A stretch of DNA of 64,000 nucleotides from Escherichia phage WPEC6. The notes under the pieces were generated by a model that was given only the letters and a program-made list of their open reading frames with translations, was not told where the DNA came from and searched no databases. The stretch lies in sequence record PV763039.1, one strand, 5' to 3'. Made by a program: the position numbers and the translations under genes. This document shows, piece after piece, positions 100 to 792 of this stretch (position 1 is its first letter; every line of letters starts with the position of its first letter).

Positions 100-792
100 G
101 TGACGACAATTATTGCGACCAAAAATAAGATTTTGAGTGACGGTAAGGTAACTTTTGGTGGACGTGTAGATTCTATTAATTTCAAAAAGGTCCGAAAAAT
201 TGGAGATTACCTTGTAGGTGGTGCTGGTCGTCTGACCTCCGTGCTTTCTTTCTTTCAATGGTTTGAACAAAATCTACAGTGCGAAGCAGCACGTGATGCT
301 GTCCCTGGTTTGATGATTCACTCTGATCCAGATAAAGAAGATGAAGAGTTTATTGCACTTGTTGTTCATCCAGATGGACGTATTTTCCTGCACGAAGGTA
401 ACAACCCAACACGTGCATATCCGATTGATGAAGAATATTATGCGGTAGGAAGCGGGTCAGACTTTGCTTTAGCTGCTCTTGATGCAGGAGCAACACCAGA
501 ACAGGCTATGGAAGTAGCTAAAAAGCGAGATGCTTTTTCTGGTGGTGAAACATTTATTGAAGAACAAGATGAGATTATTGAATTAACAGATGATGATTTA
601 GAAAACTTCTCCAAAGAAGAATTAATCAATCTTTTGAAATTCGGTAATCCCTACGGTGAAGAAGAACCTCGTAACGTGGCAGGTAACGAGGCGGATACTG
701 AAGAAAAATCTGTTGCAGAAAACAACTTGACTTCTAAATCTGAAAATATTAATCTCGTAAATGTGGCGGATTTCGAAGAAACCGCTATTTAA
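100..792 (+). CDS. HslV-like Ntn-hydrolase peptidase (proteasome beta-type) with acidic C-terminal tail
   Basis: GTG start after RBS GAGGAGGAAG; N-terminus MTTIIATKN, FKKVRK and AVGSGSDFA motifs align to HslV (Thr directly after Met); about 60 aa D/E-rich C-terminal extension. Confidence 0.65.
   Translation: MTTIIATKNKILSDGKVTFGGRVDSINFKKVRKIGDYLVGGAGRLTSVLSFFQWFEQNLQCEAARDAVPGLMIHSDPDKEDEEFIALVVHPDGRIFLHEGNNPTRAYPIDEEYYAVGSGSDFALAALDAGATPEQAMEVAKKRDAFSGGETFIEEQDEIIELTDDDLENFSKEELINLLKFGNPYGEEEPRNVAGNEADTEEKSVAENNLTSKSENINLVNVADFEETAI

Follow-up and report, generated by a model that had tools for sequence, protein, structure and literature searches.

The question raised by a gene close to the start of the sequenced DNA of Escherichia phage WPEC6 (PV763039.1) is whether a phage-encoded relative of the protease subunit HslV could act without an unfoldase of its own. 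The DNA analysed is a stretch of 64,000 nt, referred to below as the window, and the gene occupies positions 100-792. A previous description made from the letters alone (the sequence-only reading) had proposed an HslV-like peptidase that begins M-TTIIA, carries an acidic C-terminal extension and has no HslU partner in the window. The open reading frame (ORF) and its N-terminus are present as described, giving a protein of 230 aa, and so are the two motifs that had been singled out, G21-R-V-D-S-I-N-F-K-K-V-R-K33 and G117-S-G-S120. The analyses presented here indicate that the gene probably encodes a catalytically competent N-terminal nucleophile (Ntn) threonine peptidase of the PPH type, an accessory protein that carries its own tail and would work without a dedicated AAA+ unfoldase. 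In RefSeq the gene already carries the annotation 'peptidase HslV family', and the family was described computationally in 2021.

The product of 100-792 is very probably a member of the proteasome/HslV superfamily of Ntn hydrolases. It matched phrog_1040 ('peptidase HslV family') over residues 1-229 with an E value of 4.5e-63, and scored 25.6 bits against Pfam PF00227 (Proteasome), for which the gathering cut-off is 22.4. Among solved structures the best match was HslV; the single sequence matched Thermotoga (T.) maritima HslV at E 4.9e-9, and a profile of the 64-sequence family did so at E 9.3e-16, with Thr1 aligned to Thr1. The family alignment contained 64 homologs of 26-81% identity, positions in HslV were mapped to it through HMMER alignments, and the AlphaFold model was built on it. 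In the model the core shows the alpha-beta-beta-alpha Ntn fold, and the top Foldseek matches were HslV (2.7e-10), BPH (7.8e-10) and 20S proteasome beta subunits (E 1e-8 to 1e-10 overall). The coding sequence (CDS) and the predicted features of its core are listed here, with model confidence given as the predicted local distance difference test (pLDDT).

100-792, + strand: CDS of the HslV/PPH-like Ntn threonine peptidase, 230 aa; GTG start at 100-102, TAA stop at 790-792
100-564, + strand: proteasome-like catalytic core, residues 1-155; AlphaFold pLDDT mostly >90, Foldseek matches as above
103-105, + strand: codon of the putative catalytic nucleophile, Thr2 (Thr1 after removal of Met); present in 64/64 homologs and aligned to HslV Thr1
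139-141, + strand: Asp14, equivalent to HslV/proteasome Asp17; invariant (64/64)
187-189, + strand: Lys30, equivalent to Lys33; invariant (64/64)
217-231, + strand: G40-G-A-G43-R loop of the oxyanion region, G43 being equivalent to HslV Gly48; G43 in 63/64, G40 in 60/64
448-456, + strand: G117-S118-G119, equivalent to HslV G123-S124-G125; invariant (64/64)

The equivalents of Thr1, Asp17, Lys33 and the glycine are thus all intact, with none substituted. Since the catalytic residues are invariant across the homologs, the catalytic apparatus is under strong selection. The identification as a phage-encoded HslV-like peptidase stands. This strict invariance suggests that Thr1 would act as the nucleophile, assisted by the Asp14/Lys30 pair, the backbone of Gly43 and Ser118.

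The position of the start codon matters for this assignment. GTG at 100 is the supported start because most homologs begin MTT (82/88 in the first homolog set, and 121 among the 150 representatives that match best); at the equivalent position the start codon of relatives is ATG, GTG or TTG, and an AGGAG-type ribosome-binding site is also kept in them. Two nearby features concern the choice of start.

86-92, + strand: Shine-Dalgarno sequence GAGGAGG, 7 nt ahead of the GTG
313-315, + strand: internal ATG (Met72), taken as the start in some database records, a mis-annotation

In RefSeq NC_052654.1, for example, gp217 (CDS 94403-94882) is a protein of 159 aa begun at the internal ATG equivalent to window position 313, and a five-member cluster of 159-aa proteins (P0025) likewise begins at Met72. 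Those records therefore lack 71 conserved N-terminal residues, the catalytic Thr among them.

HslV (ClpQ) proper is a dodecamer activated by the C-terminal tails of HslU, and its cognate HslU is encoded with it in the hslVU operon or elsewhere in the genome. The protein shares with HslV a Thr directly after the Met, identical catalytic residues, the same fold and the absence of a propeptide. It differs in that helix H2, the basic pore cluster and the HslU-interface residues of HslV are missing, about 75 extra residues are found at the C-terminus, and there is no adjacent hslU gene. By its sequence and its predicted structure, it is not an orthodox HslV. Its scores fell below threshold for both NCBIfam HslV equivalog models, NF003964 (32.2 bits, cut-off 137) and TIGR03692 (31.4 bits, cut-off 157.75). 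Helices were predicted by AlphaFold at residues 45-67 (one long helix), 120-128 and 133-143; residues 68-84, in which no helix was modelled, make up the following feature.

301-351, + strand: predicted loop, residues 68-84, replacing HslV helix H2 and including the acidic stretch D76-P-D-K-E-D-E-E-F84 at the position of the basic pore cluster of HslV

HslV residues R86, L88, R89 and K90 map to K79, D81, E82 and E83, and the acidic state is conserved: position 81 is Asp in 61/64 homologs, 82 is Glu in 56/64 and 83 is Glu or Asp in 56/64. Over the 11 residues 74-84 the net charge is -3 to -6 in the 57 closest homologs. Other positions of the HslU pocket are also altered, F54 being replaced by Leu and Q114 by Pro or Glu, and in the column equivalent to HslV K28 no Lys was seen among the six commonest residues, which cover 59/64 sequences. 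According to the paper on structure 1G3I, K28 of HslV reportedly has a role in HslU binding. In HslV the basic cluster is arranged around the entrance of the pore, reacts to the binding of HslU and is required for activity (PMC5777263), and the same contrast between basic and acidic pores was drawn by Fuchs et al. (PMC8665760).

The phage clade called PPH was described in 2021 by Fuchs et al., including its lack of AAA+ partners; they saw neither co-occurring AAA+ proteins nor an informative genomic context for these clades (PMC8665760). Members are defined by a missing helix H2 with H1, H3 and H4 kept, are about 140 residues long, and come from tailed phages and prophages (PMC8665760). The window protein has in common with them a tailed-phage origin, a proteasome-like core with Thr1, Asp17, Lys33 and the glycine, no propeptide, the missing H2 and no co-occurring AAA+ partner; at 230 aa, of which the core alone accounts for about 155, it is longer than the ~140 residues of PPH and adds a helical motif and an acidic tail. 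No description of the tail motif, of an acidic patch at the pore position or of the PhoH linkage described below was found in the 2021 paper. A scan of 1.84 billion representative sequences returned 2,332 matches at E<=1e-3, 123 at 1e-10 and 12 at 1e-30. The nearest ~60 are 180-350 aa long and align out to query residues 180-210, while more distant matches are of PPH size (130-160 aa) and align to residues 1-150. The nearest short relatives (134-147 aa, with an MTT start) gave E values of 1e-10 to 1e-15 and 58-70 bits, compared with 26-39 bits for true HslVs. From these indirect similarities, the window protein probably represents a tail-bearing branch of the phage lineage of PPH type, whose published representative is WP_042125023.1.

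Two other groups bear comparison. RPC proteins have been reported from proteobacterial genomes only and are more divergent than PPH (Fuchs et al., PMC8665760). They resemble the window protein in having a PPH-like core without H2 and a C-terminal extension, that of RPC being without a known structural match; RPC is proteobacterial, whereas the clade of the window protein is found in phages and viral contigs, its relatives being encoded in 235 phage records and at 291 viral-contig loci. A narrow-pattern scan of 185,579 bacterial species genomes, which did not reach Pseudoalteromonas or Mesorhizobium, found no close copy other than one 425-bp contaminant contig. This contig (L088, JAPMLR010000072.1, from a Lysobacteraceae assembly) matched residues 68-208 at 100% aa identity by tblastn, and most likely represents phage contamination of a bacterial assembly. 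BPH (PDB 5OVS), the second group, is an HslV-derived tetradecameric double ring with an acidic pore region that has lost the HslU-interface residues and has no known unfoldase; HslU was not pulled down with it, and it was inert in standard peptidase assays (PMC5777263). Acidic residues at the pore position, no propeptide and no unfoldase found are common to BPH and the window protein, and the structures match (E 7.8e-10), but sequence similarity is marginal (phmmer E ~1 to 5ovs_A), so that the likeness is one of fold only. BPH also differs in retaining H2 and a long pore loop, in lacking a C-terminal tail and in being encoded by a bacterial chromosomal gene. As to functional work on phage HslV-like proteins, the literature search gave only the 2021 bioinformatic paper.

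The altered HslU interface bears directly on the possibility that a host unfoldase (HslU or ClpX/ClpA) is hijacked to form a hybrid ATP-dependent protease, as the sequence-only reading had suggested for a host unfoldase of HslU/ClpX type. E. coli, the host, encodes HslU. The HslV-like catalytic core and the retention of F57 of the HslU pocket are in keeping with this idea, and the wider family has its known hosts among Proteobacteria, in which HslUV is usually present. However, H2, L88 and R86/R89/K90 are all replaced, F54 and Q114 are changed, no Lys was seen at K28, and the protein failed the HslV equivalog models; in BPH, moreover, loss of the HslU-interface residues goes with independence from HslU, which was not pulled down (PMC5777263). 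No docking of HslU would be expected because H2 is lost, the equivalents of Arg89 and Lys90 are acidic and the Lys of Lys28 is absent. Use of host HslU is disfavoured by the loss of H2, the acidic pore cluster, the missing K28 Lys and the failed equivalog cut-offs, and recruitment of a host unfoldase in general is considered quite unlikely.

A phage-encoded partner was sought in the window and in the related genome NC_052654.1 (151,671 bp), of which positions 1-150,000 were covered by annotation and a Walker-A scan. This reference shows 99.2% identity to window positions 1-19,915 and 91-98% over other aligned blocks, and is partly rearranged relative to the window. Among window ORFs of at least 100 aa the Walker-A scan gave a single match, a spurious one in a tail-fibre gene, in agreement with the earlier statement that no HslU-like AAA+ gene occurs in these 64 kb. 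Extending the search to the rest of the genome by way of the reference gave the same answer: no homolog of HslU or ClpX was found in the 64-kb window or in NC_052654 positions 1-150,000. The P-loop proteins of the reference are a primase/helicase, a helicase, a small kinase-like NTPase, PhoH and one AAA protein of PF00004, gp108. The last of these (379 aa) is encoded ~44 kb from the peptidase in NC_052654 and was present in 0/84 peptidase neighbourhoods (<=8 kb). It has a weak similarity of the Rix7/Cdc48 type (E ~1e-3), shows no aromatic pore loop in the aligned stretch, and hits clamp-loader PHROGs; its relatives beyond the subfamily come mostly from phages of Firmicutes (Enterococcus, Bacillus, Staphylococcus, Lactobacillus) and are annotated as clamp-loader-like. 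As a candidate for the missing unfoldase gp108 was rejected, being unlinked, differently distributed, weakly matched in the PDB and without a pore-loop motif.

The region beyond the HslV-like core is the second part of the protein that sets it apart. The sequence-only reading had noted a roughly 60 aa acidic tail absent from HslV; such a tail is indeed present and acidic, but it is longer, comprising ~75 aa (156-230) with 21 D/E and 5 K/R (net -16), and the whole protein has a calculated isoelectric point of 4.3. It can be divided into two predicted parts.

565-666, + strand: acidic linker and two-helix motif, residues 156-189, with helices at 164-169 and 172-181; core motif LTDDDLENFSKEELINLLKFG; net charge -10
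667-789, + strand: distal disordered acidic tail, residues 190-230; pLDDT block means 39-49; acidity kept, sequence not

The motif itself (residues 163-182, LTDDDLENFSKEELINLLKFG) has the form T.E....[ST][KR]E[EQ]L[LI] and is kept down to 32-43% identity, and its two short helices were modelled by AlphaFold at pLDDT 84-89. Tails of at least 30 aa, with a mean net charge of -13, are carried by 74 of the 150 best-matching representatives, and 39 of the 150 have the strict form of the motif. No Pfam domain was detected at E values up to 5 in the nine tails or relatives searched, and a likeness of the tail helix to HeH, SAP or Rho_N was set aside as mere resemblance, with no Pfam support at the same limit. 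The possibility that the peptidase C-terminus, ADFEETAI, mimics the HslU activator peptide EDLSRFIL was likewise rejected, as the end residues vary among close homologs. Some relatives (P0061-P0071, 264-379 aa) add a C-terminal domain ending KWRLHNA, and others an additional helical region. The KWRLHNA domain is preceded by a zinc-ribbon-like C.H...GVC..CG, and the sole Pfam hint was a weak one to ADK_lid (E 0.074).

According to Fuchs et al., C-termini in this fold point off the ring and are possible interaction sites, and several of the new homologs may not be compatible with stacked rings (PMC8665760). That caution, applied to the loss of H2 and the C-terminal additions, allows for a protein that is not compartmentalised at all, a monomeric or small-oligomer Ntn hydrolase or transpeptidase of narrow specificity, comparable to connectase, with the tail recognising one target. 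The varied C-terminal add-ons of the relatives would suit such modular targeting, and BPH was inert on generic substrates (PMC5777263). On the other hand, sequence and structure are closest to the ring-forming HslV and BPH rather than to connectase, and the acidic patch lies exactly at the HslV pore position, which would be meaningful only in a ring. This alternative is judged improbable.

To examine the gene neighbourhood, 3,701 ORFs of at least 60 aa were collected from 84 loci representing 24 peptidase lineages (at 50% identity). Unbiased clustering of these ORFs showed that a PhoH-like ATPase is the only broadly recurrent neighbour family. In 7/7 tail-bearing lineages (28 loci) this ATPase is encoded at a distance of 235-3,400 nt from the peptidase gene, without exception on the same strand as the peptidase; it was near the peptidase in 0/17 tail-less lineages, where the flanks available were at most 8 kb and often less. 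In six of the seven tailed lineages the tails are strongly acidic (net -10 to -31) and PhoH lies upstream; in the seventh a near-neutral tail of 44 aa is accompanied by a downstream PhoH. The linkage persists as PhoH identity drops to 23-27%. Examples of PhoH-linked loci are:

L004, 3787-4542
L006, 1541-2326
L007, 3714-4469
L032, 9271-10017

No earlier report of a linkage between PhoH and the peptidase was found in the literature searched, and it is a new observation, made on lineages that are not phylogenetically independent. A further neighbour, gp218 (phrog_14834), is kept beside the peptidase in 2/7 tailed lineages; in the window and in several relatives its stop codon either overlaps the start of the peptidase or lies directly against it. 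No relation of gp218 to the peptidase family, to Pfam or to the PDB was found; it was modelled with confidence as a helical protein, for which no structural neighbour was informative. At one of the loci above, L006 of Aeromonas phage 2L372D, two adjacent HslV-family paralogs were found (gp210, 4432-4983, and gp211, 5001-5885; both phrog_1040), one tail-less (183 aa) and the other tailed (294 aa), an arrangement that may point to hetero-oligomers in some phages. Only one peptidase copy is present in the window phage.

A natural deletion affects the same cluster of genes. In Escherichia phage VEcB (NC_052663.1 / MT932211.1, 21498-22298; protein P0066), PhoH residues 1-113 are fused in-frame to the peptidase from about residue 66. 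The deletion removes the end of PhoH, the whole of gp218 and the catalytic N-terminus of the peptidase (residues 1 to ~65), while sibling phages are intact; the RefSeq label of the fusion is still 'peptidase HslV family'. Since VEcB forms plaques without the PhoH end, gp218 and the peptidase N-terminus, the block must be dispensable, with an accessory function.

These observations can be read in a different way, with the peptidase and the linked PhoH-like P-loop ATPase (plus gp218 in enterobacterial phages) forming one module, in which the tail hairpin docks and the ATPase gives energy or targeting, for example towards RNA-protein complexes. PhoH is the sole widely recurrent neighbour, in 7/7 tailed and 0/17 tail-less lineages, despite its divergence to 23-27% identity, the end of gp218 touches or overlaps the beginning of the peptidase gene in the window and in several relatives, and in VEcB a single deletion took gp218 completely, together with part of PhoH and the N-terminus of the peptidase. 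The tailed lineages, however, are probably monophyletic and belong to related large myoviruses, so the arrangement may reflect inherited gene order rather than selection. The PhoH family consists of SF1-helicase-related RNA helicases, not protein translocases, gp218 occurs in just 2/7 lineages and has no recognisable fold, and Fuchs et al. saw no informative genomic context (PMC8665760). A joint module is therefore regarded as unlikely. Dispensability in VEcB, and a location among many small accessory genes, might also suggest that the gene is a decaying, non-functional passenger. This is scarcely credible, as the catalytic residues are strictly invariant down to 26% identity and the ORF is retained at full length in 235 phage records and ~2,300 representative clusters.

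The favoured reading, that of an accessory PPH-type peptidase acting without a dedicated unfoldase, can be set out as a series of steps. Translation begins at GTG 100, as shown by the sequence and the N-termini of the homologs. Thr is a permitted second residue for methionine aminopeptidase, and the host enzyme would clip the Met to expose Thr1 with no propeptide involved, as is established for E. coli HslV. The subunits would then form a ring like those of HslV and BPH, with an acidic Asp-Glu-Glu patch at the pore; HslU docking and activation would go unused, and access to the pore may be self-regulated, as has been proposed for BPH. More speculatively, the hairpin (164-181) and the floppy acidic tail might project outwards and serve for recruitment or gating, with a preference for basic or unfolded polypeptides. 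The function is auxiliary and not essential, which the VEcB deletion supports.

Several points weigh against this scheme. No biochemical data on any member of the clade were found in the searchable literature, and what is said here of oligomeric state, activity and substrates is prediction. Of the analogues without a partner the closest is BPH; it is inert in standard peptidase assays (PMC5777263), and 'peptidase' may be too simple a term. F57 of the HslU pocket is retained in 58/64 homologs, so use of host HslU is still conceivable, and the consistent PhoH linkage hints at a partner outside the model. A bolder extension would make the acidic-tailed subclade a distinct phage degradation module, with the hairpin, the polyanionic tail and the linked PhoH replacing an AAA+ unfoldase; the tail would serve as a nucleic-acid-mimicking bait or gate, and basic nucleic-acid-binding host proteins (nucleoid and ribosomal proteins, defence nucleases) would be destroyed early in infection. 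This is a long shot.

The remaining features lie on either side of the CDS.

1-100, + strand: 3' end of the upstream gene, a homolog of NC_052654 gp218 (166 aa, phrog_14834)
6-35, + strand: sigma-70 promoter-like match, TTGACA, 18-nt spacer, TAGAAT; 11/12 consensus
798-823, + strand: terminator-like hairpin TGCCCCTTCGGGGGCA followed by TTTCTT; intrinsic-terminator-like, with a GC-rich stem and a T-tract

The stop codon of the gp218 homolog, TAG (98-100), shares one base with the GTG of the peptidase. A private sigma-70 promoter at 6-35 was considered and rejected, since the match lies inside the conserved gp218 codons for VDKETLRAIEY and is lost by synonymous changes in most relatives; it is probably a coding coincidence that forms no part of the system. 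The site is an example of a promoter scan misled by coding constraint.

The window comes from an Escherichia myovirus of the phAPEC8-like kind (genus Phapecoctavirus, subfamily Stephanstirmvirinae), and its positions 1-6000 show at least 99% identity to 48 deposited genomes. It is not collinear with NC_052654: window 1-28886 corresponds to 94091-121426 of the reference, a piece of 1.4 kb (~28886-30264) matches 128677-127655 in reverse, and from 30264 onward the window matches 65166-28481, also reversed, which contains the terminase and structural module. The junction was found in one piece in 0/134 related records, and may have arisen by inversion, by rearrangement or during assembly. The corresponding region of NC_052654 contains a gene for a serine recombinase/invertase. 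Three related records, OP562383.1, MG065650.1 and MG065645.1, are labelled 'Acinetobacter phage' or 'Campylobacter phage'. In OP562383.1 the region has 99.8% DNA identity to the E. coli-phage version, and the peptidases of MG065650.1 and MG065645.1 have 99.1% and 67.7% aa identity to it, respectively. The host labels of all three look doubtful.

What is added here is modest and does not overturn current understanding: a motif in the tail, a pore position of reversed charge, the linkage to PhoH, a natural deletion and an error in the annotated start codon. Proteasome homologs are nonetheless widespread in phages (~2,300 representative clusters match), and no experimental study of them was found in the searchable literature. 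The E. coli phage copy, with a tractable host, phages that are easy to handle in the laboratory and an existing natural deletion mutant in VEcB, offers a practical entry point. The question it opens is how viruses may use a proteasome-like protease without an unfoldase, and testable handles on it are provided by the motif in the tail, the reversed charge at the pore and the linkage to PhoH.

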